Of a DNA stretch of 64,000 nucleotides, positions 926 to 31,775 are shown piece by piece. Within the stretch, counting starts at the first letter, position 1; each line of letters begins with the position of its first letter. The stretch is from Candidatus Acidiferrales bacterium (GTDB taxonomy: Bacteria > Acidobacteriota > Terriglobia > Acidiferrales > UBA7541): contig CAWJHG010000005.1 in the NCBI GenBank assembly GCA_963842585.1, positions 285,652 through 349,651 on the forward strand, read 5' to 3'. The notes below the pieces were generated by a model. It saw only the letters and a program-made list of their open reading frames with translations, did not search any database and had not been told where the DNA came from. A program made the translations under genes and the position numbers.

Positions 926-954
926 TTGACCCGACTTCCGGGTGCGGCGATAAT
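926..954 (+). promoter_or_regulatory. candidate sigma70-type promoter upstream of shc
   Basis: TTGACC (926-931), a 17-nt spacer, then GATAAT (949-954), about 145 nt upstream of the shc ATG. It is followed by the hairpin GTACCC-CTGC-GGGTAC (about 967-982). Confidence 0.35.
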
Positions 955-1098: not shown

Positions 1099-3141
1099 AT
1101 GGCGTCGTTCGCACGAGTAGGAGAGCAACTTCCGGTCGCGCCAGCGCCCGCCCCATGGCGCCAGGAGAACTGGGCCGAGCGGGTCGAAACGGCCGTCAAG
1201 AACGGCGCGGAGTACCTGCTTTCGATTCAGTCCGAAGAGGGGTATTGGCACGGTGAACTCGAAGCCGATACCACGCTTGAATCGGATTACATTTACTACC
1301 TCTATGTTCTCGGCAAGGCCGAGCCGGACCGCATCGTCAAACTTGCCAATTATGTGCGCCGGAAACAGATGGAAGATGGCGGCTGGCCGATCTATCCCGG
1401 TGGACCATCCGAACTGAATGCAACGACCAAAGCCTACTTCGCCCTCAAATTGGCGGGTGATTCCGCGGACGCGCCGCACATGGTCAAAGCGCGGGAAATC
1501 GTGCACCGGCTTGGCGGGCTCGAACAGACCAACTCCTACGTGAGGTTCTATCTGGCGCTGGTTGGAGCCGTCGGCTGGGAACTGGTGCCCGCCATTCCGC
1601 CGGAGTTGATGCTCCTGCCGAACTGGTTCTATTTCAACATTTACGAGATGTCCTCCTGGACGCGCGGAATCGTGATCCCCATGGCCATTCTCTCCTCGTT
1701 ACGGCCGGACTTTCGCCTGCCCGAGCACGCCCGAGTCGACGAACTGTTCAAGGATTCCTCGCAAAAAGCTGCAGCGTTCCATTGGAGCAAGCAGTTCCTG
1801 TCCTGGAAGAATGTTTTCCTGGCCGTCGATCGCGGGCTGAAACTGTATGAGAAGCTGCCGTGGAAACCGCTCCGGCAGAAGGCCATCCGCGAAGCGAAGC
1901 AATGGATGGTCGAACATCTGGAGCGGACCGAGGGACTGGCCGCCATCTATCCCTCGATGATGAATTCCATCTTTGCGTTGATCGCCCTCGGTCACGGGCC
2001 GGATGACCCGCTGACGTCACGCGAAATCAAGGAGTTTTCCAGGTTCGAAATCGAAGAAGGCGACACTATTCGCCTGCAACCGTGTGTTTCACCGGTGTGG
2101 GATACCTGCATTGCCATGGTGGCGCTCGAAGAAGCGGGATTGCCGGCCGACGACCCTGCGCTCGTCAAGGCCGCGGACTGGCTGTTGTCAAAGCAGATCT
2201 TGGGCGGAGGCGACTGGCAGATCAAGAACAAGGATGCGGAACCGGGCGGCTGGGCGTTTGAATTCCGGAACGATTTTTACCCGGACGTGGATGACACCGC
2301 TTTCGTGCTCATGGCGCTCGAGCGGGTGAAATTCCCGGACGAGAAACGCATGGAAGGCGCGATGCGCCGGGGCCTGCAATGGCTGCTCAGCATGCAGAAC
2401 CGCGACGGAGGATGGGGAGCGTTCGACCGCGACAATGACCGGCAACTGCTGTGCAACATTCCGTTCGCAGATCATAACGCGATGATCGATCCATCGACGG
2501 CGGACGTGACGGCGCGGGTTCTTGAGTGTCTTGGCCGATTCGGCTGGCCCGCAAAGCACCCGGTGGTTCAGAAAGCCGTGGGCTTCCTGACCAAGGATCA
2601 GAGCAAGGATGGATCCTGGTTCGGACGCTGGGGCGTGAATTACGTTTATGGCACGAGCGGCGTGTTGCGCGCGCTCGAGACGGTTTCGATGACCGCGCAG
2701 GATTATTGCCTGCGTGCGGTCAACTGGCTGCGCCAGGTGCAGAAGGCCGACGGAAGCTTTGGCGAATCGCTGAACAGTTATGAAGTGGTATCGAGCAAGG
2801 GGCAGGGGAACAGTACGCCTTCGCAAACAGCGTGGGGTCTGATCGGACTGCTGGCCGGCGCCAACCCCGATGATCCGGCGATTGCCCGCGCGGCGGCGTA
2901 CCTGGTCACCCAGCAGCACGCCAATGGATCCTGGAGCGAGGAAGATTTTACGGGCACCGGCTTCCCGGGCGTGTTTTACCTGAAGTATCACCTGTATAAG
3001 AATTCCTTCCCGGTCTATGCGCTGGCGCGCTACCGGAATCAAGGACAGCGGGCCGGCGATTACTGCGCCGTAAAGTTTAATCCGAGCGACTTTCGCCTGC
3101 GCAGCGGCTTGTACACTGCACGCGAACGGCGCGTTTCCTAA
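1099..3141 (+). CDS. shc: squalene-hopene cyclase
   Basis: 680 aa. Catalytic DxDDTA motif (DFYPDVDDTAFVLMAL) and repeated QW motifs (e.g. LLSMQNRDGGWGAF, LRQVQKADGSFGES). RBS GGGGAG precedes the ATG. Confidence 0.95.
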   Translation: MASFARVGEQLPVAPAPAPWRQENWAERVETAVKNGAEYLLSIQSEEGYWHGELEADTTLESDYIYYLYVLGKAEPDRIVKLANYVRRKQMEDGGWPIYPGGPSELNATTKAYFALKLAGDSADAPHMVKAREIVHRLGGLEQTNSYVRFYLALVGAVGWELVPAIPPELMLLPNWFYFNIYEMSSWTRGIVIPMAILSSLRPDFRLPEHARVDELFKDSSQKAAAFHWSKQFLSWKNVFLAVDRGLKLYEKLPWKPLRQKAIREAKQWMVEHLERTEGLAAIYPSMMNSIFALIALGHGPDDPLTSREIKEFSRFEIEEGDTIRLQPCVSPVWDTCIAMVALEEAGLPADDPALVKAADWLLSKQILGGGDWQIKNKDAEPGGWAFEFRNDFYPDVDDTAFVLMALERVKFPDEKRMEGAMRRGLQWLLSMQNRDGGWGAFDRDNDRQLLCNIPFADHNAMIDPSTADVTARVLECLGRFGWPAKHPVVQKAVGFLTKDQSKDGSWFGRWGVNYVYGTSGVLRALETVSMTAQDYCLRAVNWLRQVQKADGSFGESLNSYEVVSSKGQGNSTPSQTAWGLIGLLAGANPDDPAIARAAAYLVTQQHANGSWSEEDFTGTGFPGVFYLKYHLYKNSFPVYALARYRNQGQRAGDYCAVKFNPSDFRLRSGLYTARERRVS

Positions 3142-3149
3142 GTATCCCG

Positions 3150-4184
3150 ATGCGGTACCCTTTCGGGCTGGTTTTCGATTCCACAAAACATCTTCTGGCG
3201 GGAAAACTGCGCGGCGAGCGCAGGTTTCCGGTGATTCTCTCGCTCGACCCGCTGGGCGGCCCGTCCGGTCCTGGAGCGAACGGCACTGGGGAGGGATCCG
3301 CAACAGAGCGGACCATGCTGACCGTCGAACAATGCCTGGCAGCGATCGAAGAGTGCCCCACGCCGGTGGTTACCCTGGGCGGTCCGGAGCCGCTCGAATA
3401 TCCGGAAATTGCGGCGCTGACCCGGGCGATCCTGGATCGCGGCCACCACCTGTTCCTCTCTACCGACGGAACCCGGATCCGGCGCTGGCTGCACATGATT
3501 CCTCCGTACACGAATTTCTTCTGGAACGTGAAACTGGACGGAACCGAGTCCGTGCATGACGGGCGCTCCGGCCGTCCCGGACTTTTCATCGAAGCTTGGG
3601 ACGGCATCAAGGCGGCCAAGAACGCCGGTTTTTTTGTGGTGGTGACCAGCACGATCTATCCGGACACGGACATCAACGACCTGGTCGCTCTCTATGAAAA
3701 ACTGCACGCGCTGCACGTGGATGGATACCTACTGTCGCCCCACTATCCCGAGCAGAAATTATGCCGGGACGGCAGCGCAAGGTTTCATGAGAAGATGCAT
3801 CAAAGATTCCGCGAGGCGAGCGACCGGCTGGCCGATTACAATCTGATGCTCTCTCCGGTTTACCTCGAGTATCTGCGCGGCGAGCGCGAACTGGACTGCA
3901 GCGCCTGGGCCGGGCCGGTGTACGGGCCCGCGGGATGGTCGGGTCCGTGCTCCCAGCTGCATATCAACCACGCGAAAAGCTATAAAGCGCTGCTCGAGCA
4001 GACGGTTTGGGAAAACTACGGCCGGGGTCTGAATCCGCGCTGCGAGAATTGCCAGTGCCACGCGGGTTATGAAACGGCGGCGCTGCTCGGCATGAACCCC
4101 AAGGCCGGCGACATCTGGAAAATGCTCGCCTGGCAGCTCGGCGGCAGCCTGGGCGAGAAGAAGGAAGGGAAACACCCTCGATGA
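3150..4184 (+). CDS. HpnH-like protein (adenosylhopane-synthase family) lacking the radical-SAM CxxxCxxC motif
   Basis: 344 aa, collinear with HpnH: KLRGERRFPVIL.L.PL, LTVEQCLAAIEECPTPVV, FFWNVKLDG...HD, GYLLSPHY, C-terminal RCENCQCHAGYE. The segment where HpnH has FRCNLACxGCGKI reads GGPSGPGANGTGEGSATER. There is no TGC/TGT in any frame there. Confidence 0.85.
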   Translation: MRYPFGLVFDSTKHLLAGKLRGERRFPVILSLDPLGGPSGPGANGTGEGSATERTMLTVEQCLAAIEECPTPVVTLGGPEPLEYPEIAALTRAILDRGHHLFLSTDGTRIRRWLHMIPPYTNFFWNVKLDGTESVHDGRSGRPGLFIEAWDGIKAAKNAGFFVVVTSTIYPDTDINDLVALYEKLHALHVDGYLLSPHYPEQKLCRDGSARFHEKMHQRFREASDRLADYNLMLSPVYLEYLRGERELDCSAWAGPVYGPAGWSGPCSQLHINHAKSYKALLEQTVWENYGRGLNPRCENCQCHAGYETAALLGMNPKAGDIWKMLAWQLGGSLGEKKEGKHPR

Positions 4185-5197
4185 CAACACTGGTCACGGG
4201 TGCGGCGGGATTTCTCGGGAGCCACGTGGCGCGCCAACTGGTCGCGCGAGGGGAGAGCGTCCGCGTGCTGATGCGGCCATCGAGCAATAACCGCGCGATC
4301 AGTGATTTGCCGCTCGAATATGTGACCGGAGACCTGCGGGATCTGGCGTCGCTCGCTCGGGCCATGATCGGCATGAAGCGGGTGTTTCACGTCGCAGCAG
4401 ATTACCGTTTGTGGGCCAAGAATCCGCAGGATATCTACGATTCGAATGTGGGTGGAACCCGGAATCTGCTGGCGGCAGCCAAGCAGGCGGGAATCGGGCA
4501 GCTGGTCTATACCAGCACTGTTGCGACCATTGCCGTCGACCGGCCGGAACTTCCAAATGAATCCACCCGGACCACACTCGAAGAGATGATCGGTCATTAC
4601 AAACGATCGAAGTGGATGGCAGAACAGGAAGTGTTGAAGGCGGCCGCGGAAGGATTTCCCGCCATTGTGGCGATGCCGACGACTCCTGTGGGCCCGTGGG
4701 ACTGGAAACCCACGCCGACCGGGAAGATCATCCTGGATTTTCTGAACGGAAAGATGCCGGGGTACGTGGAGACGGGATTGAATTTTGTCGGTGTGGAAGA
4801 GTGTGCTGCCGGACACCTGCTGGTTGCAGAGCGGGGAAAAACGGGGGAGCGGTATTTGCTCGGGGCGGAGAATCTGACGCTCAAGGGTCTGCTGGACGTG
4901 CTGGCCGGGATTACCGGCCTGCCGGCGCCCCGGATGAAAATCCCGCACGGCCTGGCATTGGGTGTAGCGTATGTGGAGAGCGCGTTGTCGCGGATGCTCG
5001 GGAAGGAACCACAGATTCCGGTCGAAGGCGTGAAGATCGCCGAGCACAAGATGTTTGTGGATGCGTCGCGGGCGGTGCGGGAGTTGGGATTTCAGCCCGG
5101 ATCGGTGACCGCGGCGCTCGAACGTGCGGTCGGCTGGTACAGGGCGAACGGGTATGTTTCCCGACGGCGGGCGAAGCGGATGAAGCTCGCGGCGTGA
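4181..5197 (+). CDS. hpnA: hopanoid-associated NAD-dependent sugar epimerase/dehydratase family protein
   Basis: 338 aa. N-terminal Rossmann motif TGAAGFLGSHV and YxxxK (HYKRSK). ATGA overlap with the upstream gene. Position inside the hopanoid operon. Confidence 0.85.
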   Translation: MTTLVTGAAGFLGSHVARQLVARGESVRVLMRPSSNNRAISDLPLEYVTGDLRDLASLARAMIGMKRVFHVAADYRLWAKNPQDIYDSNVGGTRNLLAAAKQAGIGQLVYTSTVATIAVDRPELPNESTRTTLEEMIGHYKRSKWMAEQEVLKAAAEGFPAIVAMPTTPVGPWDWKPTPTGKIILDFLNGKMPGYVETGLNFVGVEECAAGHLLVAERGKTGERYLLGAENLTLKGLLDVLAGITGLPAPRMKIPHGLALGVAYVESALSRMLGKEPQIPVEGVKIAEHKMFVDASRAVRELGFQPGSVTAALERAVGWYRANGYVSRRRAKRMKLAA

Positions 5198-5220: not shown

Positions 5221-5997
5221 ATGAGAGTGCTGGTCACCTTTGCGGTACAAGCGGAGTTTGCGTCGTGGCGCAAACTTCGCCCGTTTCGCGCGAGAACATG
5301 GAATCCGTCGCCAGCACGCGGAGCAGTCCAGGTCCAGGAAGCGGAAATCGGGGCTCACACGGTCTGCATTTACCTGACCGGTATGGGCAGCAAGGGTCTC
5401 GGCGTTCCGGTCGGAATGGATGCGAAAGCGATCGGGGTTGACCTGGTTCTTTCTTCGGGGCTGGCGGGATCACTCAATCCGAAGTATGGGCCGCTGACCG
5501 TTGTTGCGCCGCGGCACGTCGGAACGATGGGAGATTCGCCGGGACTGACTGTCTCGAAGAGTCTGCTCGAACTTGCCGGCAAGCAGGGGGCCACGGTCGT
5601 TGACGGACTGCTCAGTTCCGACCGAATCATCGATACCGCGGAGGAGAAAAAACGACTTTCTCCCTTTGCGGATATTGTGGACATGGAGTCCTTTCATGTG
5701 GTTCGCGAGTTTGTAAACCAGCAAACTCCCGTCGTCGTGATCCGGGCCATCAGTGATGGCAGTGAGGAAGAGTTGCCGGTAGATTTTGAAAAATGCCTTT
5801 CCGCCGAAGGATCCATCAAGGTGGTTCCTCTCCTAAAGGACCTGGCCAGGCGGCCCGGCAAAATTCCTGCCCTGATCCGGTTCGGCAAGCAAAGCAGGGA
5901 AGCGGCGGAGAAACTGACAGGATTTCTGGACGAGTATATTCAGTCGCTCCGGGTGGAAGTGCTGAACGACCGGGTGATGGAGGCCGTGAACGAATGA
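5221..5997 (+). CDS. hpnG: hopanoid-associated nucleosidase/phosphorylase (PNP_UDP_1 family)
   Basis: In-frame ATG at 5221 after AGGGGA. The longer track ORF from 4612 overlaps hpnA. Motifs SSGLAGSL, VDMES and IRAISDG are typical of MTA/SAH-nucleosidase-like HpnG. Operon context supports the call. Confidence 0.7.
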   Translation: MRVLVTFAVQAEFASWRKLRPFRARTWNPSPARGAVQVQEAEIGAHTVCIYLTGMGSKGLGVPVGMDAKAIGVDLVLSSGLAGSLNPKYGPLTVVAPRHVGTMGDSPGLTVSKSLLELAGKQGATVVDGLLSSDRIIDTAEEKKRLSPFADIVDMESFHVVREFVNQQTPVVVIRAISDGSEEELPVDFEKCLSAEGSIKVVPLLKDLARRPGKIPALIRFGKQSREAAEKLTGFLDEYIQSLRVEVLNDRVMEAVNE

Positions 5998-7100
5998 GCG
6001 GAACGGGGACGATGGTCGAGGGGCAGAGGACAGGGGGCGCGCTACCGAGGAAGATGCGGGCGGGGGTGTATCGCGATAAAGGGGTGGTGCGGGTGGAAGA
6101 GGTGCCGGTGCCGGAAGTGGGCGATCGGGAAGTGCTGATCAAGGTGGCAGCCTGCGGGATTTGCGGGACGGACATCAAGAAGATCTACCAGCGTTACGTC
6201 GAGCCGCCGCAGATTTTGGGGCATGAGCTGGCCGGGACCGTCGTGGCCACCGGCAAGGGCGTCACCCGGTGGAAGCTGGGTGACCGGGTCATGAGCTTCC
6301 ACCATATTCCGTGCGGCGATTGTTTCTTCTGCAAGAACCGGCTGTTCTCCCAGTGCCCGCAGTACAAGAACACCGGTCTGACCGGAGGATTCACGCCGAA
6401 TGGGGGCGGATTTGCCGAGTACGTAAAGGCCATGCCATGGGTCGCCGAGCGCGGGATTGTCGCGTTGCCCGACACTGTGGGTTTTGAGGAAGCCACGTTT
6501 ATTGAACCGATCAACACCATCGTGAAGGCCGTCCAAAAAGCCCGGGTGGCGGCGGGGGAGACGGTGCTGGTGGTGGGGTGCGGCCCCATCGGATTGCAAT
6601 TGTTGATGGTTACCAAAACGGTGGGTGCGCGCATCTATACCAGTGACCCTATGGCCACCCGGCGTAGGAAGAGTCTGGAGTTGGGAGCGGTAGAGTCATT
6701 TGACCCCATAAGTGGTAAGCTACTGGAAGAAGTACGCACGCGGACGGGGGGTCGTGGGGCAGATGCGGTCTTGGTGGCGGTGGCGCATCCGGCAGTCGTA
6801 GCGGAAGCGTTGGCGGCGGCCAGGCCCGGCGGTAGAGTTCTTCTTTTTGCTGCAAACGACCCAGTGACAAAAATAGAGTTTCCAGCGGCTGCAGTAGGCA
6901 TTGACGAGAAGGAGATCCTGGGCAGCTACAGTGCGGCCGTGGACATCCAAGAAAGTGCGGCAGCACTGGTGCTAGAGAAGAAACTGCCGGTGATGGAGAT
7001 TGTCACGCACCGGTTTCCATTGGCTAGAATCCAAGAAGGGTTGGACCTGGCAGCCAGGCCCACCGAGGAATCGCTGAAGATCCTGATTACGCACGAATGA
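5994..7100 (+). CDS. zinc-dependent medium-chain dehydrogenase/reductase (sorbitol/threonine dehydrogenase-like), copy 1
   Basis: CGICGTD and GHELAGTVVATGKGV (catalytic Zn), CGDCFFCKNRLFSQC (structural Zn), GCGPIGL (NAD). The ATG overlaps the hpnG stop (ATGA 5994-5997). The start could also be 6012 or 6054. Confidence 0.85.
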   Translation: MSGTGTMVEGQRTGGALPRKMRAGVYRDKGVVRVEEVPVPEVGDREVLIKVAACGICGTDIKKIYQRYVEPPQILGHELAGTVVATGKGVTRWKLGDRVMSFHHIPCGDCFFCKNRLFSQCPQYKNTGLTGGFTPNGGGFAEYVKAMPWVAERGIVALPDTVGFEEATFIEPINTIVKAVQKARVAAGETVLVVGCGPIGLQLLMVTKTVGARIYTSDPMATRRRKSLELGAVESFDPISGKLLEEVRTRTGGRGADAVLVAVAHPAVVAEALAAARPGGRVLLFAANDPVTKIEFPAAAVGIDEKEILGSYSAAVDIQESAAALVLEKKLPVMEIVTHRFPLARIQEGLDLAARPTEESLKILITHE

Positions 7101-8212
7101 AAGCAGCGTCCACAAAAAAGACGGAACTAGGGCTGGAAGAAGTGCTGGTTCCAGCCAAGATAGTCGTGCCGTCGAAAATGACCGCGGCCGTGCTCTACGG
7201 CAGCGAAGATCTCCGGATCGAGAAAATTGAAGTACCCGCTCTGGCCGCCGATGAAGTCTTGCTGCGCGTGCGACTGGCGCTGACCGACGGGACCGACCTG
7301 AAGGTCTGGAAGCGCGGTTACCACGCCAAGATGATTCAGCCACCGGCGGTATTCGGGCACGAGGTGGTTGGCGAAATCGTGGCCATGGGAAAGCGAGTGG
7401 ATTCGAGATGGCGACTGGGCACGCGGGTCATTGCGGCGAATTCCGCTCCCTGCTTCCGCTGCTACCATTGCCGTCGCGGACAAGAGAATCTCTGCGACGA
7501 CCTGCTCTTTAACAATGGCGCCTACGCGGAGTACATGCGGATTCCCGGGCGCATTGTCCGCGAGAACATGCTTGAAGTTCCGTATTCGGTCGACGACCAC
7601 AGCGCGGCCTTTGTGGAGCCGCTGGCCTGCGTCATGCGCGGCATTCATGAGATGGACGTGCGCATGGGCGATACCACGGCAGTGATTGGCTGCGGACCGA
7701 TCGGGTTGAAATACGTGCGCATGCTGTCGCGCCGGGGAGTGCGCGTGATCGCCCTCGCGAGACGCGAGGGGCCGTTGTCGGTAGCGCGGAAACTGGGCGC
7801 AGCCGTAACCATCAACGTCACCGAAGTTCCGGACGTGGTGGCGGCGGTCCGAGAACTGACGGAAGAACGACGCGGACCGGACTCGGTCGTAGAAGCCGCA
7901 GGGAATCCGGCGACCTGGGAGCAGGCGCTGAAGATGGTCTGTCGAGGCGGCGTGGTGAATTTCTTCAGTGGGCTGCCGACCGGGACGCGAGTCGAAATCG
8001 AACCGGCCGCCATTCATTACTCCGAGATCAAGATGATTTCGCCCTTTCACCACACCCCGCGGTTTATCCGTGAAGCGCTCGAGGCAGTCCGGCGCGGTGA
8101 CGTTTCCGCCGAGGAATTTGTCACCGAAGAGATTCGATTGGAAGATTTGCCACAAGCCTTTGAGCGGATGAAGGCACGCAGCGGAGAGATCAAGCTGGCC
8201 GTGCGGCCGTGA
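7097..8212 (+). CDS. zinc-dependent medium-chain dehydrogenase/reductase, copy 2
   Basis: GHEVVGEIVAMGKRV, CFRCYHCRRGQENLC and GCGPIGL. ATGA overlap with the preceding dehydrogenase (7097-7100). Confidence 0.85.
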   Translation: MKAASTKKTELGLEEVLVPAKIVVPSKMTAAVLYGSEDLRIEKIEVPALAADEVLLRVRLALTDGTDLKVWKRGYHAKMIQPPAVFGHEVVGEIVAMGKRVDSRWRLGTRVIAANSAPCFRCYHCRRGQENLCDDLLFNNGAYAEYMRIPGRIVRENMLEVPYSVDDHSAAFVEPLACVMRGIHEMDVRMGDTTAVIGCGPIGLKYVRMLSRRGVRVIALARREGPLSVARKLGAAVTINVTEVPDVVAAVRELTEERRGPDSVVEAAGNPATWEQALKMVCRGGVVNFFSGLPTGTRVEIEPAAIHYSEIKMISPFHHTPRFIREALEAVRRGDVSAEEFVTEEIRLEDLPQAFERMKARSGEIKLAVRP

Positions 8213-8302: not shown

Positions 8303-10249
8303 ATGCTGCGTCCCGGCGAGCTGTCGCTGATGGAGAAATTGCCTCGAAACGGCTGTAGCCCGCAGGCCGCCGAGCAGTACACCCGCTGGCTGGCAACCCA
8401 TCACTACGAAAATTTCAACGTGGTTTCCTGGCTGTTGCCAAAGGATCTGCACCAGCATTTTTACAACGTGTATTCCTATTGCCGGTGGGCGGATGATCTG
8501 GGCGATGAAATCCCGGGGAAGGATCGCGCGCTCGAGTTGCTGGCCTGGTGGGAGACGGAGTTGGACGCCTGCTATGAAGGCCGGCCTTCGCATCCTGTGT
8601 TTGTGGCACTCCGGGAGACGGTGGTGGCCAAGGACGTGCCGAAGCAGCCGTTTGCTGATTTGCTGAAGGCTTTCCGGCAGGACCAGACGGTAGGCCGCTA
8701 CCCGACCTGGGACGCGGTCCTCGATTATTGTGTGTATTCGGCCAATCCCGTAGGCAGGTTGGTCTTGTATCTCTGCGGTTACCGGGATGAGCGGCGGCAG
8801 CGGCTTTCTGACCACACCTGCACGGCCCTGCAACTGGCGAACTTCTGGCAAGACGTTTCGCGGGACCTCGAAAAGGGAAGGATCTACATCCCGCTCGATC
8901 GAGCGGCGGCGCACGGGCTCTCCGAGCAGGACCTGGTCGGGAAGATCTTCGACCAGCGGTACGTTTCGCTGATGAAGGAACTTATCGACTCCACCCGCGG
9001 GCTTTTTCGCCAGGGCATGCCGCTGGCAAAGATGGTGGAGGGAAGGCTGAGCGTCGACCTCGCGATGTTCAGCCGGGGCGGAATGGCCGTTCTCGATGCG
9101 ATTGAGGAGCTCGGCTACGACACCCTGCACGAGCGCCCGGCGGTCGGCAAGGCCAAACAGGTCCGCTTGCTCGGCAGGACCCTGGTTGGACATGTGTTTT
9201 CGGGCGCACCAACGCCGATCAATGAGGCCGTTCGGCACGCTCCGGATGCACCTGGCGAACCAGGCGCGATGGTCAGCGTGGCGGCCTCCTATGAGGAATG
9301 CCACCGGGTGGCCCGGGAGTCGCATAGCAATTTCTATCCCGCTTTTTTTCTGCTTCCGAAGCCCAAACGTGACGGGATTGTGGCCCTCTATGCCTTCATG
9401 CGTTACATCGACGACGTGTCCGATGAGGGCGATGACCTGGCCAGCAAACAACACGGTCTCGCGAAGTGGCGCGCGGCACTGGACCAGGCGATCAATGGGC
9501 AGGATCAGGTGGTGGTGGGTTCGGCGGCCATCGCTTCGCCTTCCCTGAACCTGGACGGTGCAGCGGAGGTTCTGCCCGCGCTGGTCGACACGATTGAGCG
9601 TTACAAGATGCCGCCCCGTTATCTCCACGACCTGATTTCCGGCGCCGAGATGGATCTGACCCTTCAGACTTACCCGTCCTTTGAGCGCCTGAAGGAATAC
9701 TGTTACCGCGTGGCCGGAACGGTGGGGCTGACGTGCACACATATTTTCGGGTTTCGCGATTCGAAGGCACTGGAGCTTGCGGAAAAACTGGGGCTGGCCT
9801 TCCAGTTGACCAATATCATTCGCGACGTGCACGAGGATTTTCGGATCGGCCGCGTCTACCTGCCGGAAGAGGATCTGGCCCACTATCGCGTCACCAGGGA
9901 GGACTTGGGGCGCGAGGAGGCCAGTCTGGGTGTGCGCGAGCTGCTGCGGTTTGAAGCCGATCGCGCCTGGAGACTGTACGAGGAAGGCAGCAAGCTTCTG
10001 GGGCTCGTCGAAGAGGACAGCCGGGGGACGCTGTGGCTGCTGGTGCATACCTACAGCGCGCTGCTCGCGCGCATTGAAAGTGTAAATTTCGCCGTTTTCG
10101 GGGCGCGGGTCCGGCTGACGAAGGCGGAAAAACTGAAGTTGATTGCCAAGGCGCGGTTCGGGCGCCACACGGAAGAGAATATCCTTGCAAAACGTGATCG
10201 TGATCGGCGGCGGGCTGGCGGGGCTGTCGGCGGGCGTCGCGCTGGCTGA
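8303..10249 (+). CDS. hpnC/hpnD: fused squalene-synthase-like protein: HpnC-like N-terminal domain plus HpnD-like C-terminal domain
   Basis: 648-aa uninterrupted ORF with two SQS/PSY domains. Domain 1 has YSYCRWADDLGDE and NFWQDVSRDLEKGRIYIP. Domain 2 has YAFMRYIDDVSDEG and NIIRDVHEDFRIGRVYLP. The linker around 9180-9290 has no in-frame stop. Confidence 0.85.
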   Translation: MLRPGELSLMEKLPRNGCSPQAAEQYTRWLATHHYENFNVVSWLLPKDLHQHFYNVYSYCRWADDLGDEIPGKDRALELLAWWETELDACYEGRPSHPVFVALRETVVAKDVPKQPFADLLKAFRQDQTVGRYPTWDAVLDYCVYSANPVGRLVLYLCGYRDERRQRLSDHTCTALQLANFWQDVSRDLEKGRIYIPLDRAAAHGLSEQDLVGKIFDQRYVSLMKELIDSTRGLFRQGMPLAKMVEGRLSVDLAMFSRGGMAVLDAIEELGYDTLHERPAVGKAKQVRLLGRTLVGHVFSGAPTPINEAVRHAPDAPGEPGAMVSVAASYEECHRVARESHSNFYPAFFLLPKPKRDGIVALYAFMRYIDDVSDEGDDLASKQHGLAKWRAALDQAINGQDQVVVGSAAIASPSLNLDGAAEVLPALVDTIERYKMPPRYLHDLISGAEMDLTLQTYPSFERLKEYCYRVAGTVGLTCTHIFGFRDSKALELAEKLGLAFQLTNIIRDVHEDFRIGRVYLPEEDLAHYRVTREDLGREEASLGVRELLRFEADRAWRLYEEGSKLLGLVEEDSRGTLWLLVHTYSALLARIESVNFAVFGARVRLTKAEKLKLIAKARFGRHTEENILAKRDRDRRRAGGAVGGRRAG

Positions 10250-11597
10250 AGCCGGCTGGCGTGTGCGCCTGTTCGAGCAGCGGCCCTTTCTCGGCGGCCG
10301 GGCAACGTCGTACGTGTTGCCGGACGGCGAGCATGTGGACAACTGCCAGCACGTGACGCTCGGGTGCTGCACGAACCTCGAAGATTTTTACCGGCGCGTC
10401 GGAGCACAGGAGAAGATCCGATACTTCGATCGGCTCCTGTTTCAGGACCCCCAAGGCCGCACTGGAATCATGCAGGCCGGCCTGCTGCCGGCCCCGCTGC
10501 ACATGACCGGATCGTTTCTTTCCTTTGCACCGCTCGCGCTGGCCGACAAGAGGTGCATCGCGAGCGCGCTTCTGGATATTTTACGGGGCCGGGGGCACAC
10601 TGCAGATCTGGATACGCCCGGCGGGATTTCCATGCTCGCGTGGCTCAGGAAGCGCAAGCAGACGCCCCGGGCGATTGAGCGGTTTTGGCGCGTGGTGCTG
10701 GTCAGTGCGCTCGACGAAGAGCTGGAGCAGACCGACGCGCGGTTTGGCGTGGATGTGTTCTGGAAGGGGTTTCTCTCAAACCGAACCGGCTACCGCATGG
10801 GTGTGCCGGCCGTGCCGCTCGCCGAACTGTACGACGGTTGCAAGGCAGAGATCGAACGAAGGGGCGGGGAGGTGAATTTGCGTTTGCCGGTGCGGGCGAT
10901 TCACTTCTCGAACGGCGCGGTAGACAGTCTGGAGTTTGATGGCGGACGGCGGGAATCGGCGGAAGCCTATGTGTTCGCGATGCCGCACCAAGCGCTTGCG
11001 GAGTTGCTGCCCGAAGAGATCCAGAAGAGGGAGCCAGCGCTCGCGCATCTCGGGAAGATCCGCGTTTCGCCCATTACCGGTGTGCACTTCTGGTTCGACC
11101 GGGAGGTGATGAAAGAGCCGTTTGTCACACTGCTCGAGACGACCACCCAGTGGATTTTTAATAAAACGGAACTGTATGGCGCGAACAAGAGCGGGGGCAA
11201 CGAAAAGGGGCAATATCTGCAATTGGTGATCAGCGCATCCTATGACCTGTTGCAGAAGCCGCGGCAGGAGATCATCGATCTTTGCCTGGCAGAACTGCGT
11301 CAGGCTCTGCCCCGGATGCGGGAAGCAAGATTGCTCAAAGCCACGGTGATCAAGGAGGCGGCGGCCACATTTTCACCGCAACCGGGAGTGGACCGCTGGC
11401 GTCCAACACAGCAGACCGGTATTGCGAGGATGTTCCTTGCAGGCGATTGGACCCAAACCGGTTGGCCGGCGACGATGGAAGGTGCGGTTCGAAGCGGGTA
11501 TCTGGCCGCCGAGGCGGTGTTACGGGTGGCGGGAACGGCTCGGACGATTTTGCGGCCGGATCTGCCGCCGGATGGTTGGGTCGGGATGTTTGCCTAG
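10185..11597 (+). CDS. hpnE: squalene-associated FAD-dependent desaturase/amine-oxidase family protein
   Basis: Dinucleotide-binding motif VIVIGGGLAGLSAG...FEQRPFLGGRA. The C-terminus FLAGDW...GWPATMEGAVRSG is typical of amine-oxidase/HpnE. The track ORF starts at TTG 10143. TTG 10185 or GTG 10194 (after GGAAGAG) is more likely. The gene overlaps the 3' end of hpnC/D. Confidence 0.85.
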   Translation: MQNVIVIGGGLAGLSAGVALAEAGWRVRLFEQRPFLGGRATSYVLPDGEHVDNCQHVTLGCCTNLEDFYRRVGAQEKIRYFDRLLFQDPQGRTGIMQAGLLPAPLHMTGSFLSFAPLALADKRCIASALLDILRGRGHTADLDTPGGISMLAWLRKRKQTPRAIERFWRVVLVSALDEELEQTDARFGVDVFWKGFLSNRTGYRMGVPAVPLAELYDGCKAEIERRGGEVNLRLPVRAIHFSNGAVDSLEFDGGRRESAEAYVFAMPHQALAELLPEEIQKREPALAHLGKIRVSPITGVHFWFDREVMKEPFVTLLETTTQWIFNKTELYGANKSGGNEKGQYLQLVISASYDLLQKPRQEIIDLCLAELRQALPRMREARLLKATVIKEAAATFSPQPGVDRWRPTQQTGIARMFLAGDWTQTGWPATMEGAVRSGYLAAEAVLRVAGTARTILRPDLPPDGWVGMFA

Positions 11598-11625: not shown

Positions 11626-11925
11626 TCAAGAGAGAGCGCAGGACAGGATCTGGCGTTCGCGAACGAACAGACCCTCGTTCGAACGATCGGTTTCGTCGTA
11701 AGCCTCACGGTTGGCGGACAGGAAGTTCTGATAAGAGATCTCGGAATCCCAGAAGTCCAGGGTGAAGTAGATGTGAGAGCGGGAGGGATCGGGGTGAAGT
11801 CGGGTACCCCGGAAGTGAGGATCGCGCTGGAAGAGCTGTACCCAGGTACCATTGCTCCCATAGGCACTTTCAAAGCGTTCTTCATATCCTGGCTTGACTT
11901 CGAACTCCCATAGGATTACAAACAT
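11626..11925 (-). CDS. small ABM/dimeric alpha-beta-barrel-like protein (hypothetical)
   Basis: The internal ATG gives MFVILWEFEVKPGYEERFESAYG...WVQLF..., which looks like antibiotic-biosynthesis-monooxygenase-fold proteins. The longer ORF start at 12024 is less likely. Confidence 0.5.
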   Translation of the reverse strand: MFVILWEFEVKPGYEERFESAYGSNGTWVQLFQRDPHFRGTRLHPDPSRSHIYFTLDFWDSEISYQNFLSANREAYDETDRSNEGLFVRERQILSCALS

Positions 11926-12104
11926 AGAGGTCCCATCTTCTGCTCTCGCCAAGCAGCATTCCAGGATAACTTCAAAGGGGAAGACTGGTGTGCTGGGCGG
12001 TTGTAGCGTTCCGATTGGATACATCTCGGGAATAGACTCGTATCAAACCAGTCGTGTAACAAGTTGAAGTGGCAGTCCGTTGCGACTGACGGACGGAGGC
12101 GTTT

Positions 12105-14443: not shown

Positions 14444-17032
14444 GTGAGAGTTAAGAAATATCCCCACGGCAATCACTTTGGCAGGGAGTTTGCCTGTTCT
14501 GACTCCGACGAACCGCTTTTGTCGAAAAGTATTGCTTCGCTAAATTTCTGCATTGTGGAGGCTGGATTGGGGAAAGTCAGCACGCATTCGCGCACCGACG
14601 ACGTTTCTCTCTCGGCAACGCTCGGGGAGGAAGTGGATCATAGCCTTCGTTATTTGATCGGGAAAAACCCTGATCGCGCCCTTCCGCAGGATCTTTTTAA
14701 GGCCATGGCTTTCGCACTGCGCCCACGGCTGCTCGCCGGGATGGAGCAGACCGAAAAGCGATACCAGGCCGCGCATTCCAAGCGCATGTACTACCTCTCG
14801 GCGGAATTCCTGATCGGCCAGTCTCTGAAGAATAATCTGTTCAACCTTCGACTGACCCAGGCGGCAATGGATGTCTGCCAGTCCTTCGGTTTTCAGCTGG
14901 CGGAGGTTTTTCAAAGCGAACCCGACGCCAGTCTCGGAAACGGCGGTTTGGGGCGCCTGGCGGCTTGTTTCCTCGAATCGCTCGCCAGTATGGACCTTCC
15001 AGGCTATGGCTACGGGATCAATTACGAGTTCGGGCTGTTCAAGCAGGAAATCCAAAGCGGCAATCAGCAGGAGCGGCCGGATCAATGGCTGCGCGACCCT
15101 TCCCCATGGGAAATTGCTCACGTGGACGAGGCCTGCGTTGTTCCTCTCTACGGCCGCATTGAACACTCCGAGGGCCACGACGGCCGCTACAACCCGATGT
15201 GGGTTGACTGGAGCTTTGTTCTCGGTGTTCCCCATGACATCCCGATCGTCGGGTACCGCGGCCACACGGTGAATAAGCTCCGTTTGTTCTCCGCCCGCGC
15301 TTCAGACGAATTCGACATGCAGGTATTCAATGCCGGGGACTATGTACGGGCAGTCGAAGCGAAAATACAATCGGAAACCATCTCGAAGGTCCTGTATCCA
15401 AACGATTCCTACCCATCCGGCAAGGAGCTCCGGCTGGTCCAGGAATACTTCATGGTGGCCTGCGCGCTGCGCGACATCCTCGGCCAGTTCAGTCGCCAGT
15501 CCTTGGACCTTTCCCTGCTTCCGAAAAAGGTTGCCCTCCAGCTGAACGACACCCATCCGGCGCTCGCGATTGCCGAACTGATGCGTCTCCTGGTGGATGA
15601 ACATTCCTTGCCATGGGAGCGGGCCTGGGACATCACGAGGAAGGTCTGCTCGTTCACCAACCATACGCTCATGCCCGAGGCTCTGGAGAAATGGCCGGTC
15701 GATCTGCTGCAGAAAACACTGCCGCGCCATCTGCAGATCCTCTTCGAGATTAATCACCGGTTTCTTCAAGAAGTGGAGTGTCGGTTTCCTGGCGATGATG
15801 CGAGGAAATCGCGCCTGTCCCTGATCGAGGAGTCCGGTCCACGCCAGGTCCGCATGGCGCATCTGGCCATCGCAGGAAGTCACACCGTGAATGGAGTTGC
15901 CAGACTTCATTCCGAGCTCGTGAAGTCAGATCTGGTGCCGGACTTTTATGCCCTATGGCCAGAGCGTTTCACTAATGTGACCAACGGGGTCACCCATCGG
16001 CGCTGGCTGGCCTGCGGCAATCCTGCCCTGGCGTCCTTTATCACCCGATATGTGGGTTCCGGATGGGAGACCGATTTCCGCCGGGTACGTGAACTTCATG
16101 CGCATGCTTCAGAACCGGAAGCGCAGCGCGATTTTCTGGCCATCAAGCAGGACTGCAAAATGCACCTGGCGAACCTGATCTTGAAAGAGACCCAGATTCT
16201 GGTGGATCCCGAGTCCATGTTCGATGTTCATGTGAAACGCATTCATGAGTACAAGCGCCAACTCTTGAACATTCTCCGCGTGATCCATACCTACAGGGGC
16301 ATCGTTGAGGAAGGCAAGATGCCGCGCGTTCGACGCACCGTCATTTTCGGCGGCAAAGCCGCCCCCGGCTACCACCTGGCCAAACGAATCATCAAGTTAA
16401 TCCACAATGTCGCCACGGTCGTGAACGACGATCCTGCCGTCAAAGGCATGCTGCGGGTCGTCTTCCTTCCGAATTACCGCGTAACGCTGGCAGAAACGAT
16501 CATCCCCGCCGCGGACCTGAGCGAGCAGATCTCGACAGCCGGTACGGAGGCTTCCGGCACCAGTAACATGAAATTCGCGATGAATGGGGCGCTGACCATC
16601 GGCACTCTGGACGGCGCCAATATTGAAATCCGCGAACGGGTTGGGGAAGAGAATTTCTATCTTTTCGGCCTCGATGCGGCGCAGGTGTCTGACCGGCGCA
16701 ATCACCATAATCCGCGGCATCTCTACGAGACCGATCCACTCATCCGGGGGGTCATGGACTATTTGCTCGAGGAGCGATTCTCCGAAGACGAACCCGGAAT
16801 CTTCGATCCGGTCTGTGCCACGCTGCTTGATCATGGCGACCACTACCTTCATTTCGCGGATTTTCACTCCTATCTTGACGCCCAGGAACGTGCGGAGACC
16901 GATTATCTGAATCGCCCGCTCTGGGCGCAGAAGGCGCTCTTCAATATCGCCAATTCCGCGGAATTCTCGAGCGACCACACCATTGGCCAATATGCCAGGC
17001 GAATCTGGCACATCGTCCCCGCACATGAGTGA
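14444..17032 (+). CDS. glgP: glycogen/maltodextrin phosphorylase
   Basis: GT35 hallmarks: GNGGLGRLAACFLES, and the PLP-lysine region EASGTSNMKFAMNGALTIGTLDGANIE. The start is uncertain: GTG 14444, or TTG 14567 after GGAGG. Confidence 0.95.
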   Translation: MRVKKYPHGNHFGREFACSDSDEPLLSKSIASLNFCIVEAGLGKVSTHSRTDDVSLSATLGEEVDHSLRYLIGKNPDRALPQDLFKAMAFALRPRLLAGMEQTEKRYQAAHSKRMYYLSAEFLIGQSLKNNLFNLRLTQAAMDVCQSFGFQLAEVFQSEPDASLGNGGLGRLAACFLESLASMDLPGYGYGINYEFGLFKQEIQSGNQQERPDQWLRDPSPWEIAHVDEACVVPLYGRIEHSEGHDGRYNPMWVDWSFVLGVPHDIPIVGYRGHTVNKLRLFSARASDEFDMQVFNAGDYVRAVEAKIQSETISKVLYPNDSYPSGKELRLVQEYFMVACALRDILGQFSRQSLDLSLLPKKVALQLNDTHPALAIAELMRLLVDEHSLPWERAWDITRKVCSFTNHTLMPEALEKWPVDLLQKTLPRHLQILFEINHRFLQEVECRFPGDDARKSRLSLIEESGPRQVRMAHLAIAGSHTVNGVARLHSELVKSDLVPDFYALWPERFTNVTNGVTHRRWLACGNPALASFITRYVGSGWETDFRRVRELHAHASEPEAQRDFLAIKQDCKMHLANLILKETQILVDPESMFDVHVKRIHEYKRQLLNILRVIHTYRGIVEEGKMPRVRRTVIFGGKAAPGYHLAKRIIKLIHNVATVVNDDPAVKGMLRVVFLPNYRVTLAETIIPAADLSEQISTAGTEASGTSNMKFAMNGALTIGTLDGANIEIRERVGEENFYLFGLDAAQVSDRRNHHNPRHLYETDPLIRGVMDYLLEERFSEDEPGIFDPVCATLLDHGDHYLHFADFHSYLDAQERAETDYLNRPLWAQKALFNIANSAEFSSDHTIGQYARRIWHIVPAHE

Positions 17033-19179
17033 AAGGTAAATCATTGAACCCCTCAGCCCCAATGAGCACTCCGTCTGCGGCCTTGTCCCTGATCTCCGAT
17101 TCTTTCCGAATCCATCCCGGTAGCCCGCTCCCGTTGGGGTCGATGGTGCAGCGCGGGGGAGTGCATTTTGCCGTCGTCTCCGAGAGTGCCACATCGGCCA
17201 CCCTGGTGCTTTTCCATCCGGACGAGGACGAACCGGCGATGGAATTCCCTCTGGATCCGGTCCTTAACCGAACCGGAAATATCTGGCATGCCTTCCTTGA
17301 AGGGCTCGACCCGGGGATTGATTACGGATTTCGGTTTGATCGGTTTCCGAACGAAGCTCCCCAGCGCTTTCGATTTGATCACCGGCGGGTGCTGATCGAT
17401 CCTTATGCCCTGGCGACCAGTCGAAACTGGCGATGGGGAAGGAAGTCGGGAAAGCGCTCGCTGCGTTCCGTCGTCGTCGATAACACCTTCGACTGGGGCC
17501 TGGACCGCGCACTCAACATTCCGCTGGCGAACTCCGTAATCTACGAGGTACATGTCCGCGCTTTCACCCGGCATTGCTCATCGCGCGTCGCTCACCCCGG
17601 TACGTTTGCGGGATTGGCAGAAAAAATTCCATATCTCAAGGAACTGGGAGTCACGGCGGTCGAGCTCATGCCGGTCTGCGAATTCGATGAATCGGAAACC
17701 GACCGGCTGGACCCGCGAACGGGAGAGCCACTCCTCAATCTATGGGGTTATCATCCGCTCTCTTTTTTTGCACCGAACGCCGCCTATTCCGTGGAGGCGA
17801 CCGGACGCAAGGCCATTCACGAACTGAAAGAGATGATCAGGTCTTTCCATGCGGCGGGAATGGAAGTCATTCTCGATGTGGTTTTCAACCATACCGGAGA
17901 AGGGAACCTCAATGGCCCGACGGTCAATTTTCGGGGCATCGACAATCCGACGTACTACATGCTGCAGTCCGGTTCCGGGTCCTATCTTGATTTCACCGGG
18001 TGCGGAAACACGCTGAACTGCTCCCACTCGGTGGTTCGCGAGATGGTCCTCGATGTGCTCAAGCATTGGGTTGCCGAATACCATGTTGATGGATTTCGTT
18101 TTGATCTGGCCTCTGCCCTGGGCCGCGGCCCGAATGGGGAAGTGCTCTCGAACCCGCCGATTCTCGAGCGCATCGTTTCCGATCCCTGCCTCGCTGACGT
18201 CAAACTGATTGCCGAGGCTTGGGACGCGGGCGGACTGTATCAGGTCGGAAATTTCCCGGCATACGGAAGGTGGGCGGAGTGGAACGGAAAGTATCGCGAT
18301 GATGTCCGGCGATTTGTAAAGGGCGATCCCGGCATGGTTCCCCGCCTGGCCGCACGTTTGATGGGCAGCCCTGATCTCTATCAAAACACCGCAAGACAGC
18401 CGTTCCACAGCATCAATTTCGTGACCTGCCATGACGGCTTCACACTCGCTGACCTGGTGTCTTATCAGGAGAAACACAACGAATCGAACGGCGAATCGAA
18501 TCGGGACGGTTGTTCGGATAACCACAGCTGGAACTGCGGGGTGGAAGGTCCGACGGAGGACCCCGCTGTCGACAAACTCCGCGGCCGGCAGATCCGCAAC
18601 ATGGCGGCGCTCTTGCTGCTGTCTCACGGGGTTCCTATGCTCTTGTATGGCGATGAGGTCGGGCGATCGCAAGAAGGGAACAACAACGCTTACTGCCAGG
18701 ACAACGAGTTGACCTGGATGGACTGGGCCTGGGATGAAAAGCAGCAAGACCTTTTCCGCTTCTTCAAGAACCTGATCGCCTTCCGGCGTAAGCACCCGGT
18801 CTTGCGCAGCGAGCAGTTCGGCTCCAATTCGTCGAAACGCCAGCTCAACATGGATTGGCATGGAACCCATCTTTATCAGGCTGACTTTGCTCCCGACTCC
18901 CATTCGCTGGCCCTTCATCTGTACTGGTCGGGCTCACTCTCTCTTGCCGACCATGTCTTCCTGATCGCCAACTCCTTCTGGGGAGAGCTGAGTTTCGAAT
19001 TGCCAAAGATTGACGGATTTGTATGGTCGCGTTTTCTCGATACCGGCCTCGAACCGCCGAACGAGATTTGCGCCCCCGGACAGGAGCTGGCCATTGAAAG
19101 TCAGGTTTCATACTCTGCCGGGCCCCGTTCCGTTGTCGTGCTGATCGGCAATCCGTCGATGAAAGAAAACGGACCATGA
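17029..19179 (+). CDS. glgX: glycogen debranching enzyme (isoamylase-type, GH13)
   Basis: DGFRFDLAS, AEAWD and FVTCHDGFTLADL are GH13 catalytic regions. The N-terminal CBM48-like region is GVHFAVVSESATSATLVLF. GTG 17029 overlaps the glgP stop. An alternative ATG lies at 17062. Confidence 0.9.
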   Translation: MKGKSLNPSAPMSTPSAALSLISDSFRIHPGSPLPLGSMVQRGGVHFAVVSESATSATLVLFHPDEDEPAMEFPLDPVLNRTGNIWHAFLEGLDPGIDYGFRFDRFPNEAPQRFRFDHRRVLIDPYALATSRNWRWGRKSGKRSLRSVVVDNTFDWGLDRALNIPLANSVIYEVHVRAFTRHCSSRVAHPGTFAGLAEKIPYLKELGVTAVELMPVCEFDESETDRLDPRTGEPLLNLWGYHPLSFFAPNAAYSVEATGRKAIHELKEMIRSFHAAGMEVILDVVFNHTGEGNLNGPTVNFRGIDNPTYYMLQSGSGSYLDFTGCGNTLNCSHSVVREMVLDVLKHWVAEYHVDGFRFDLASALGRGPNGEVLSNPPILERIVSDPCLADVKLIAEAWDAGGLYQVGNFPAYGRWAEWNGKYRDDVRRFVKGDPGMVPRLAARLMGSPDLYQNTARQPFHSINFVTCHDGFTLADLVSYQEKHNESNGESNRDGCSDNHSWNCGVEGPTEDPAVDKLRGRQIRNMAALLLLSHGVPMLLYGDEVGRSQEGNNNAYCQDNELTWMDWAWDEKQQDLFRFFKNLIAFRRKHPVLRSEQFGSNSSKRQLNMDWHGTHLYQADFAPDSHSLALHLYWSGSLSLADHVFLIANSFWGELSFELPKIDGFVWSRFLDTGLEPPNEICAPGQELAIESQVSYSAGPRSVVVLIGNPSMKENGP

Positions 19180-31199: not shown

Positions 31200-31592
31200 T
31201 CAGTGAAGAAACCAGCCAGCTGCGACTGCAACCATAGTCAATTTCAGCAACCATCCGGCAGTGTAGGACACCACGAAAACGCGATGCAGTTTCATGAACG
31301 CAGCATTGGTGAGAATCAGCGGTAAAGGGCAGAGCAACCACACCGCGAGGCCCAGTTTGACGGCGCCCTCCACCGAGTGAAGACCCAGCCGAGCGATGAC
31401 GTAGGTAAACACTCCGCAAGTCAGAAAAGGCAGGGGACTGGTCAGAGCAATTGCTCGTCTTTCTGCTCCCTCGCGCCAGATTTCAGGATACGTGTAACGC
31501 CGGTGGAGCCAATCACCTGCAAAGAACCAGTCGGTCAGCGAAGATGCAATACCAGTGCCGATGGTGACGGCGATGAATCTCGTCCAGTTCAT
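31200..31592 (-). CDS. small membrane protein (DUF1761-like)
   Basis: ATG 31592 is preceded by GGAGG. The product has four hydrophobic segments. The longer track ORF start (31739) lacks support. Confidence 0.55.
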   Translation of the reverse strand: MNWTRFIAVTIGTGIASSLTDWFFAGDWLHRRYTYPEIWREGAERRAIALTSPLPFLTCGVFTYVIARLGLHSVEGAVKLGLAVWLLCPLPLILTNAAFMKLHRVFVVSYTAGWLLKLTMVAVAAGWFLH

Positions 31593-31775
31593 GACGTCCT
31601 CCCAGGTGCAGACGCATTCTACTTTGGACACGACCTGCGCGCCTCGACAAAAGCGAGAGGGATCACTTCCGCGTTCCTCGTTGCCCCGTTCCGATCTCCA
31701 AGGAATCCAGGCGGACTGCATCCGCCGTTTGGCCACCATTCGCCAGCAAATCTACTTGTTGTTAGACTTCCAGCA

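Follow-up and report, generated by a model that had tools for sequence, protein, structure and literature searches.

A co-inherited pair of zinc-dependent dehydrogenases in the acidobacterial hopanoid operon and its candidate role in side-chain redox chemistry

The operon and its two dehydrogenases

We analyzed a stretch of 64,000 nucleotides (hereafter the window) on contig CAWJHG010000005.1 of a Candidatus Acidiferrales bacterium, which carries an eight-gene operon for hopanoid biosynthesis. Two of these genes, here ADH1 and ADH2, lie between the hpnG-like gene and the genes of squalene formation (Table 1) and constitute an obligate, co-inherited pair of zinc-dependent medium-chain dehydrogenases/reductases (MDRs) of the acidobacterial hopanoid operon. 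The layout of the operon is compact: start and stop codons overlap as ATGA between the HpnH-like gene and hpnA (positions 4181-4184), between hpnG and ADH1 (5994-5997) and between ADH1 and ADH2 (7097-7100), and the fused hpnC-hpnD gene starts after a gap of 90 nucleotides. A terminator scan, in itself weak evidence, recovered no terminator-like site in that gap, and a consensus scan, likewise weak evidence, found a single promoter-like site in the first 12.5 kb, located upstream of shc. For ADH1, the start at 5994 is preferred over an upstream ATG at 5793, as 120 homologues are exactly or nearly 368 amino acids long. The fusion of hpnC and hpnD has already been reported as typical of the subdivision 2 Acidobacteria (PMC5462960).

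Table 1. Genes of the hopanoid operon and its possible promoter, in window coordinates
Feature	Position	Strand	Basis or remark
Possible operon promoter, sigma-70-like TTGACC-17-GATAAT	926-954	+	10/12 consensus matches, weak evidence
shc (squalene-hopene cyclase)	1099-3141	+	TIGR01507 786 bits, cut-off 431
HpnH-like, degenerate	3150-4184	+	TIGR03470 237 bits, cut-off 225
hpnA (hopanoid-associated short-chain dehydrogenase/reductase (SDR), 'sugar epimerase')	4181-5197	+	TIGR03466 440 bits, cut-off 368
hpnG-like PNP/MTAN-family phosphorylase	5221-5997	+	TIGR03468 111 bits, below cut-off 187
ADH1 ('ug1'), 368 amino acids	5994-7100	+	Zn-dependent MDR, polyol-dehydrogenase type
ADH2 ('ug2'), 371 amino acids	7097-8212	+	Zn-MDR paralogue of ADH1
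Fused hpnC-hpnD (hydroxysqualene synthase and presqualene diphosphate synthase)	8303-10249	+	TIGR03464 517 bits, TIGR03465 418 bits
hpnE (hydroxysqualene dehydroxylase)	10143-11597	+	TIGR03467 461 bits; start uncertain, overlaps hpnCD end

Both proteins display the domain architecture of the MDR superfamily, namely a GroES-like ADH_N domain (PF08240; E-values of 6.7e-28 in ADH1 and 1.2e-22 in ADH2) and a Rossmann-type ADH_zinc_N domain (PF00107; 5.5e-19 and 8.8e-19), with the GxGxxG signature. Their best named relatives in NCBIfam and the PDB are L-threonine 3-dehydrogenase, sorbitol and xylitol dehydrogenases, ketose reductase and the galactitol-1-phosphate, idonate and scyllo-inosose dehydrogenases, the E-values ranging from 1e-34 to 1e-50 and the identity to the solved structures being low; the nearest named relatives of both proteins all use sugars or polyols. 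The scores fall far under the curated cut-offs, both for L-threonine 3-dehydrogenase (TIGR00692, tdh: 171 bits for ADH1 and 149 for ADH2 against 458) and for the scyllo-inosose 3-dehydrogenase IolM (NF041097: 164 and 147 bits against 450). Hence, to judge from these comparisons, ADH1 and ADH2 are relatives rather than members of the named equivalogs and are unassigned within the polyol-dehydrogenase branch. They share with this branch the ADH_N and ADH_zinc_N domains, the structural lobe with four cysteines (Cys4 lobe) and the GxGxxG fold, as well as, complete in ADH1, the catalytic Cys/His/Glu(/Glu) site. They differ from it in a clade-specific GxTxGFxPxGGG insert borne by the ADH1 orthologues and in the aspartate that replaces a ligand cysteine in the clade of the window's ADH2, and none of the known enzymes has been reported as an obligate module of two paralogues. 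The two proteins are only 28% identical to each other and fall into two separate clades of mirrored topology.

In ADH1, the catalytic zinc ligands C57, H77, E78 and E171 are conserved in 85/85 orthologues, and the cysteines of the structural lobe are invariant across all orthologues in both proteins (C107, C110, C113 and C121 in ADH1; C119, C122, C125 and C133 in ADH2). The catalytic site of ADH2 retains H88, E89 and E174, but the ligand cysteine that precedes the GTD motif is Asp64 in the window ('ALTDGTD'). This aspartate is fixed in the window and 10 related loci (L001-L007, L091, L092 and L094), whereas the other 151 ADH2 orthologues have 'ALTCGTD'. Aspartate can also bind zinc. By these residues ADH2 does not appear degenerate, yet its catalytic zinc motif is not the full one. 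Asp64 is also found in sister genomes with a canonical HpnH, and so the Cys-to-Asp change is not tied to the decay of hpnH described below. A reading in which ADH2 would lack a catalytic cysteine entirely was rejected, as the alignment behind it had used the wrong cysteine; the true change is the clade-specific one from cysteine to aspartate.

The two proteins also differ at the end of the second β-strand of the Rossmann fold. ADH1 has Asp218 there in 85/85 orthologues, which is the classical NAD signature, whereas ADH2 has no aspartate after this strand but Arg-Arg, which corresponds across its orthologues to a small residue and then K/R-R, a signature of the NADP type. The second-best PDB match of ADH2 is an NADP(H)-dependent ketose reductase (1e3j), and the solved structure closest to it (4ej6/4ejm) was presumably deposited with NADP bound. 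These signatures point to a cofactor split, with ADH1 predicted to be NAD-type and ADH2 NADP-type.

The original prediction for this locus, made from the letters of the window, had described the head-to-tail packing from shc to ADH2, the ATGA overlaps and an hpnC/D-hpnE block 90 nucleotides further on, all of which the sequence and the table of open reading frames (ORFs) bear out. The motifs that it quoted (GHE, CGDCFFCKNRLFSQC, CFRCYHCRRGQENLC and GCGPIGL) are all found in the pair, GCGPIGL in both proteins, and the best named relatives agree with its placement of the two as sorbitol/threonine-dehydrogenase-like. Its description of the zinc motifs as full in both proteins holds for ADH1 and for the structural Cys4 sites of both, but not for the catalytic site of ADH2 with its Asp64. 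A second correction concerns its HpnH-like and hpnG genes: the HpnH-like protein has lost its radical-SAM cysteines, and the hpnG-like score stays below the family cut-off.

Conservation of the pair and its contexts

We scanned one genome per species and recovered 80 loci at 45-86% identity, nearly all of them from Terriglobia (Acidoferrales, Terriglobales and Bryobacterales). ADH2 immediately follows ADH1 in 80/80 of these. From metagenomes came about 65 more hopanoid-cluster loci in which the gene order is unchanged, and the two genes are adjacent in about 70 metagenome loci, including every one that is long enough to show ADH2; ADH1 homologues are 86-91% identical over 120 clusters. In sister Acidoferrales genomes all eight genes recur in an identical operon, the HpnH there being canonical, and the 4-nucleotide overlaps of hpnG with ADH1 and of ADH1 with ADH2 are found again there. 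Around the pair, a gene of the squalene-synthase family follows ADH2 in 69/80 evaluable loci, hpnG lies directly 5' of ADH1 in 58/86 loci and hpnA, the most constant upstream neighbour, is no more than 1.8 kb upstream in 65/86; 52 loci have both the link to hpnG and that to the synthase. This arrangement is far beyond chance. The hopanoid-linked pairs carry almost only Acidobacteriota labels.

One metagenomic fragment (P0246) has the C-terminus of HpnG fused in frame to an ADH1-type N-terminus, plausibly an HpnG-ADH1 fusion, with read-through or a sequencing error equally possible. Other candidate fusions were rejected. A 602-residue protein (P0137) combines a sugar-1-phosphate nucleotidyltransferase with a distant ADH and is unrelated to hopanoids; an apparent ADH1-ADH2 fusion of 586 residues (P0271) belongs to an assembly full of frameshifts, where shc too is split in three; and three more (P0233, P0139 and P0160) are miscalled starts with junk N-terminal extensions.

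The order of genes around the pair varies in several ways. Four loci (L008, L009, L010 and L012) have the pair at the end of a shc-hpnH-hpnA-hpnG operon with no squalene-synthase gene after it. Several Terriglobales loci (L028, L044, L045 and L077) keep the pair with hpnCDE and have hpnG-hpnA-shc on the opposite strand. Seven loci (L036, L040, L049, L057, L070, L072 and L076) share the compact order ispH-hpnA-ADH1-ADH2-sqs-shc, in which sqs is a single HpnD-like gene; these clusters continue into the lysine-pathway genes asd, aspartokinase, dapB and dapA. The pairing also holds in a sister clade (L083, L085, L086 and L095-L109) that shares 46-50% identity with the window proteins; here a gene for a WYL-regulator is followed by queF-II (preQ1 synthase), a gene for a Thermus-type proline dehydrogenase and then ADH1 and ADH2, and the hopanoid-linked and queF-linked pairs form separate subclades. 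In L083 and L086, genes for purine as well as pyrimidine nucleoside phosphorylase, for a cytidine deaminase and for a nucleoside transporter lie a few kb off on the opposite strand.

Within the operon, the two dehydrogenases are among the slowest genes and as slow as shc, indicating strong purifying selection. In comparison with locus L002, the nonsynonymous divergence (dN) is 0.088 for ADH1, 0.071 for ADH2 and 0.078 for shc, against 0.229 for the HpnH-like gene and 0.655 for hpnG; the synonymous divergence (dS) is saturated in this comparison, so that only the relative dN is meaningful. The HpnH-like protein of the window has lost all three cysteines of the radical-SAM CxxxCxxC motif, the canonical LEPLHACNLTCTGCGR being replaced by LDPLGGPSGPGANGT, and a cysteine of the conserved 'LCTNG' is now serine ('LSTDG'). 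Across the close loci L001-L006, the in-operon hpnH has lost cysteines, is partly eroded (32-35% identity along part of the sequence) or is deleted (L004), and the HpnH of L002 has an altered CxxxCxxxxC spacing. In contrast, L007 and L091-L094, equally close by ADH1 identity (~80%), keep a canonical HpnH with CNLTCTGC. The dN/dS of the HpnH-like gene against L002 is about 0.16, so that it may persist as a non-catalytic protein. The subclade's hpnG has also diverged: it is 40% identical between the window and L002, against about 85% for hpnA and the ADHs, and its mean identity is 37.5% in the window's subclade versus 58% in other clades at the same ADH1 distance. It nevertheless retains the 'RAISD' motif, and its scores against a profile of the family derived from 58 upstream ORFs are 229-268 bits.

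Candidate reactions of the pair

The two genes have been noticed before. Sinninghe Damsté et al. (2017, Front Microbiol 8:968; PMC5462960) described ug1, a 'Zn-dependent alcohol dehydrogenase (ca. 370 AA)' after hpnA-hpnG, and ug2, a 'Zn-binding alcohol dehydrogenase (ca. 350 AA)' before hpnC-hpnD-hpnE, and gave the function of both as 'not established'. They reported ug2 in all subdivision 1 and 3 genomes, and the cultured Acidobacteria of these subdivisions, which carry it, make tetrafunctionalised bacteriohopanepolyols (PMC5462960). For the conversion of ribosylhopane to bacteriohopanetetrol (BHT) they proposed hpnA rather than ug1 or ug2, and tied ug2 loosely to the squalene genes (PMC5462960). 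The order in the window matches their cluster description and Table S1, including the fused hpnCD of subdivision 2, and nothing structural sets it apart. Thus, the association of the pair with hopanoid genes has been known since 2017; what is new is that the pairing is strict, that the two proteins bear different cofactor signatures, that ADH2 shows the Cys-to-Asp change and that a sister clade lies outside hopanoid clusters. Our literature search found no further paper linking an alcohol dehydrogenase with hpnG.

The original prediction had put the pair forward for the reduction of ribosylhopane to BHT, a step to which, to its author's knowledge, no gene was assigned, or else for some other redox tailoring of the side chain. 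On the lack of an assigned gene recent papers agree: a study of November 2025 states that the enzyme is still to be established, and a review of August 2026 draws the step as possibly non-enzymatic. An NADPH-dependent ribosylhopane-reducing activity was described in cell-free extracts of Methylobacterium organophilum (Bodlenner et al. 2015, as cited in PMC12583986). Its cofactor would suit an NADP-type MDR such as ADH2; however, no gene accompanies the activity, and the organism is an alphaproteobacterium, a class in which no comparable candidate was seen near the hpn cluster. The earlier candidate HpnA (TIGR03466) is, like the two ADHs, an NAD(P)-dependent oxidoreductase encoded in the same operon, but it has the unrelated extended SDR fold and is widespread beyond Acidobacteriota.

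We tentatively favour a reading in which ADH1 and ADH2 form a two-enzyme NAD(P)(H) redox module acting on the ribose-derived side chain of C35 hopanoids after HpnG. It is favoured because the enzyme family handles vicinal polyols, because hpnA and hpnG are the most constant upstream neighbours of the pair and because hpnA tracks hpnH in the Alphaproteobacteria. The November 2025 study found alphaproteobacterial hpnA only in genomes with hpnH, which ties the constant neighbour of the pair to C35 hopanoids. In such a module, the pair would act on the five-carbon side chain once HpnG has removed the adenine. The NADP-type ADH2 would reduce a carbonyl, for which the leading candidate is the open-chain aldehyde of ribosylhopane, giving BHT; the NAD-type ADH1 might follow with the oxidation of a secondary carbinol of the polyol, or else serve as the partner subunit of a hetero-oligomer. 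As a single reaction, the reduction of open-chain ribosylhopane to BHT leads the candidates, albeit as a doubtful one, and ADH2 would be the most natural enzyme for it. The substrate, the directions of the reactions, the cofactor preferences and a physical interaction of ADH1 with ADH2 are all presumed here, and the NAD/NADP signature pattern would be compatible with an NAD+/NADPH relay.

Several observations weigh against this reading, and most directly against BHT formation as the specific reaction. The pair is tied to hpnC/D at least as tightly as to hpnG, given the counts above, and 22 loci have the synthase link with no hpnG immediately upstream. None of hpnG, hpnH, hpnC and hpnE was found within 10 kb at the seven compact ispH-type clusters, and two loci (L019 and L088) each consist of an ADH1-ADH2-hpnC-hpnD-hpnE operon that has neither shc nor hpnA nor hpnG in its vicinity. 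No hopanoid genes were found on the contigs of the sister clade, and single ADH1-like genes in one cyanobacterium and one Chthonomonadaceae genome have neither a partner nor hopanoid neighbours. A ribosylhopane reductase would be expected to co-occur with hpnH and hpnG wherever BHT is made, which the pair, judged by the loci covered here and by the literature, does not do, although it may be a lineage-specific enzyme. The gene ug2 is missing from Chloracidobacterium (PMC5462960), and the November 2025 study saw no obvious new candidate genes near the hpn clusters of Alphaproteobacteria, many of which are BHT producers. The substrates of the characterised relatives are secondary alcohols and ketones rather than aldose aldehydes. 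Further, one reductase would be enough for the step, yet two divergent paralogues with different cofactor signatures are co-inherited. In the window's subclade, finally, the in-operon hpnH has no iron-sulfur cysteines while ADH1 and ADH2 stay strongly conserved; if this is the only hpnH of the genome, strong selection would be acting on the pair in this lineage in the absence of ribosylhopane. We rejected this decay as proof that the pair is independent of ribosylhopane, since hpnG fits its family profile and evolves fast everywhere, and a second hpnH is possible; the four contexts that we fetched for close canonical HpnH proteins were all in-operon copies from sister lineages.

As regards the original prediction, then, the proposed synteny with hopanoid genes is strong within Acidobacteriota, where the pairing is invariant, but the linkage is not specific to hpnG/hpnH. 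A role in the conversion of ribosylhopane to BHT is plausible and chemically reasonable for a ribose-derived side chain, though it is an argument from guilt by association and unproven; the wider alternative of the prediction, a different redox tailoring of the side chain, may still apply. The assignment to this one step is neither specific nor favoured by the distribution or by the chemistry of the enzyme family, and to that extent is not supported.

The close link to the squalene genes raises the alternative that the pair acts alongside HpnC, HpnD and HpnE at the stage of squalene or C30 compounds, on hydroxysqualene or on an isoprenoid alcohol or aldehyde, or in support of squalene synthesis. 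The frequent squalene-synthase-family gene directly after ADH2, the split Terriglobales superclusters that keep the pair with hpnCDE, the two stand-alone ADH1-ADH2-hpnC-hpnD-hpnE operons and the compact ispH-type clusters, with hpnG and hpnH not nearby, would all follow from it. We nonetheless consider it unlikely: HpnE uses FADH2, so that the established HpnD/HpnC/HpnE route has no need of an NAD(P)-dependent alcohol dehydrogenase, the relatives of both ADHs use polyol or sugar substrates, four loci have the pair with no following squalene-synthase gene, and the 2017 authors held ug2 to be non-essential for squalene synthesis because Chloracidobacterium does without it (PMC5462960). Alternatively, the pair might be a general redox module for soluble sugars, polyols or small alcohols that merely became fixed in the Terriglobia operon. 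This would account for its occurrence in queF-II/proline dehydrogenase/WYL-regulator contexts at no fewer than 15 loci (at least 15) and in an unrelated context in L087, for the unlinked single ADH1-like genes of cyanobacteria and Chthonomonadaceae, and for the distant relative fused to a sugar-1-phosphate nucleotidyltransferase. It is distinctly unlikely in our view, as the position among hopanoid genes and the translational coupling are kept from 86% down to 45% identity over about 150 loci; moreover, with the hopanoid-linked and queF-linked pairs in separate subclades, the two could differ in specificity.

Relay-type explanations address the pairing itself. A two-enzyme relay of oxidation followed by reduction, by analogy with the polyol pathway or inositol epimerisation, would explain the co-inheritance of two paralogues better than a single reduction. 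In one version, HpnA or an unspecific reductase makes BHT, and the ADH1/ADH2 relay then epimerises or isomerises a secondary carbinol to yield lineage-specific BHT isomers. The complementary NAD-type and NADP-type signatures fit it, as do the secondary carbinols on which the characterised relatives all act and the role in the reduction put forward for hpnA by the 2017 authors (PMC5462960). Further, the BHT stereoisomers 34R, 34S and 22S exist, and our literature search found no gene for them. However, 34R and 34S have been reported in Alphaproteobacteria, whose hpn clusters showed no obvious new candidate nearby; in Burkholderia, BHT formation reportedly does not depend on hpnA (PMC5462960); and the degradation method applied to Acidobacteria in 2017 destroys the isomer information on their BHT (PMC5462960), our search for a literature link between Acidobacteria and the BHT-34R or BHT-x isomers having returned nothing. 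We regard this version as very unlikely. There is at best a slender chance of the more specific form in which ADH2 is the ribosylhopane reductase and ADH1 re-oxidises a secondary carbinol, by analogy with the polyol pathway or the myo-/scyllo-inositol couple, such that the stereochemistry of the side chain is set or inverted and an acidobacterial BHT isomer signature results in soils and peats.

Other features of the window and significance

A 231-residue ORF without a Pfam match (187-882, + strand) lies immediately 5' of shc. Its position is kept, at 39-72% identity, in 12 Acidoferrales-type loci (L001-L006, L011, L089 and L091-L094), where its counterparts come after lpxD wherever the locus reaches that far, and it could be a further operon-associated gene. 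The genes downstream of hpnE, which include those for an ABM-domain protein, a DUF72 protein and glycogen phosphorylase, are unrelated to hopanoids. The first of these, a small gene with the antibiotic biosynthesis monooxygenase (ABM) domain (11626-12024, - strand), is convergent with hpnE, facing its end; in L091, L092 and L094 its position is taken by a gene for about 103-106 amino acids, with a weak or faint ABM match in L092 and L094. Elsewhere in the window, a third gene of the MDR family (26939-27898, - strand) has ADH_zinc_N but no ADH_N match, is quinone-oxidoreductase-like and is unlinked to the operon. Two genes on the + strand code for SpoIIE/PP2C-type phosphatases (19176-20492 and 31377-32831), one of them with a response-regulator receiver domain; the former overlaps by 4 nucleotides the end of a glycogen phosphorylase and debranching-enzyme pair (14444-19179). 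The G+C content, about 0.60 in the hopanoid operon, is down to 0.50-0.55 over positions ~28000-56000 and then rises again, and this region of ~28-56 kb may be compositionally distinct.

Among the membrane lipids of bacteria, the bacteriohopanepolyols are major ones, and the geohopanes widely used as molecular fossils derive from them. The Acidobacteria are among the most abundant soil phyla, and the ADH pair is a reasonable and cheaply testable candidate in them. A search of the literature on heterologous BHT production in E. coli found nothing; a dedicated reductase or side-chain epimerase, if that is what the pair provides, would complete the pathway and allow such production, and it would supply a genetic marker by which the producers of each BHT isomer in soils and sediments could be told apart. 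The distribution of the pair argues for a lineage-specific solution at best, rather than a universal enzyme.

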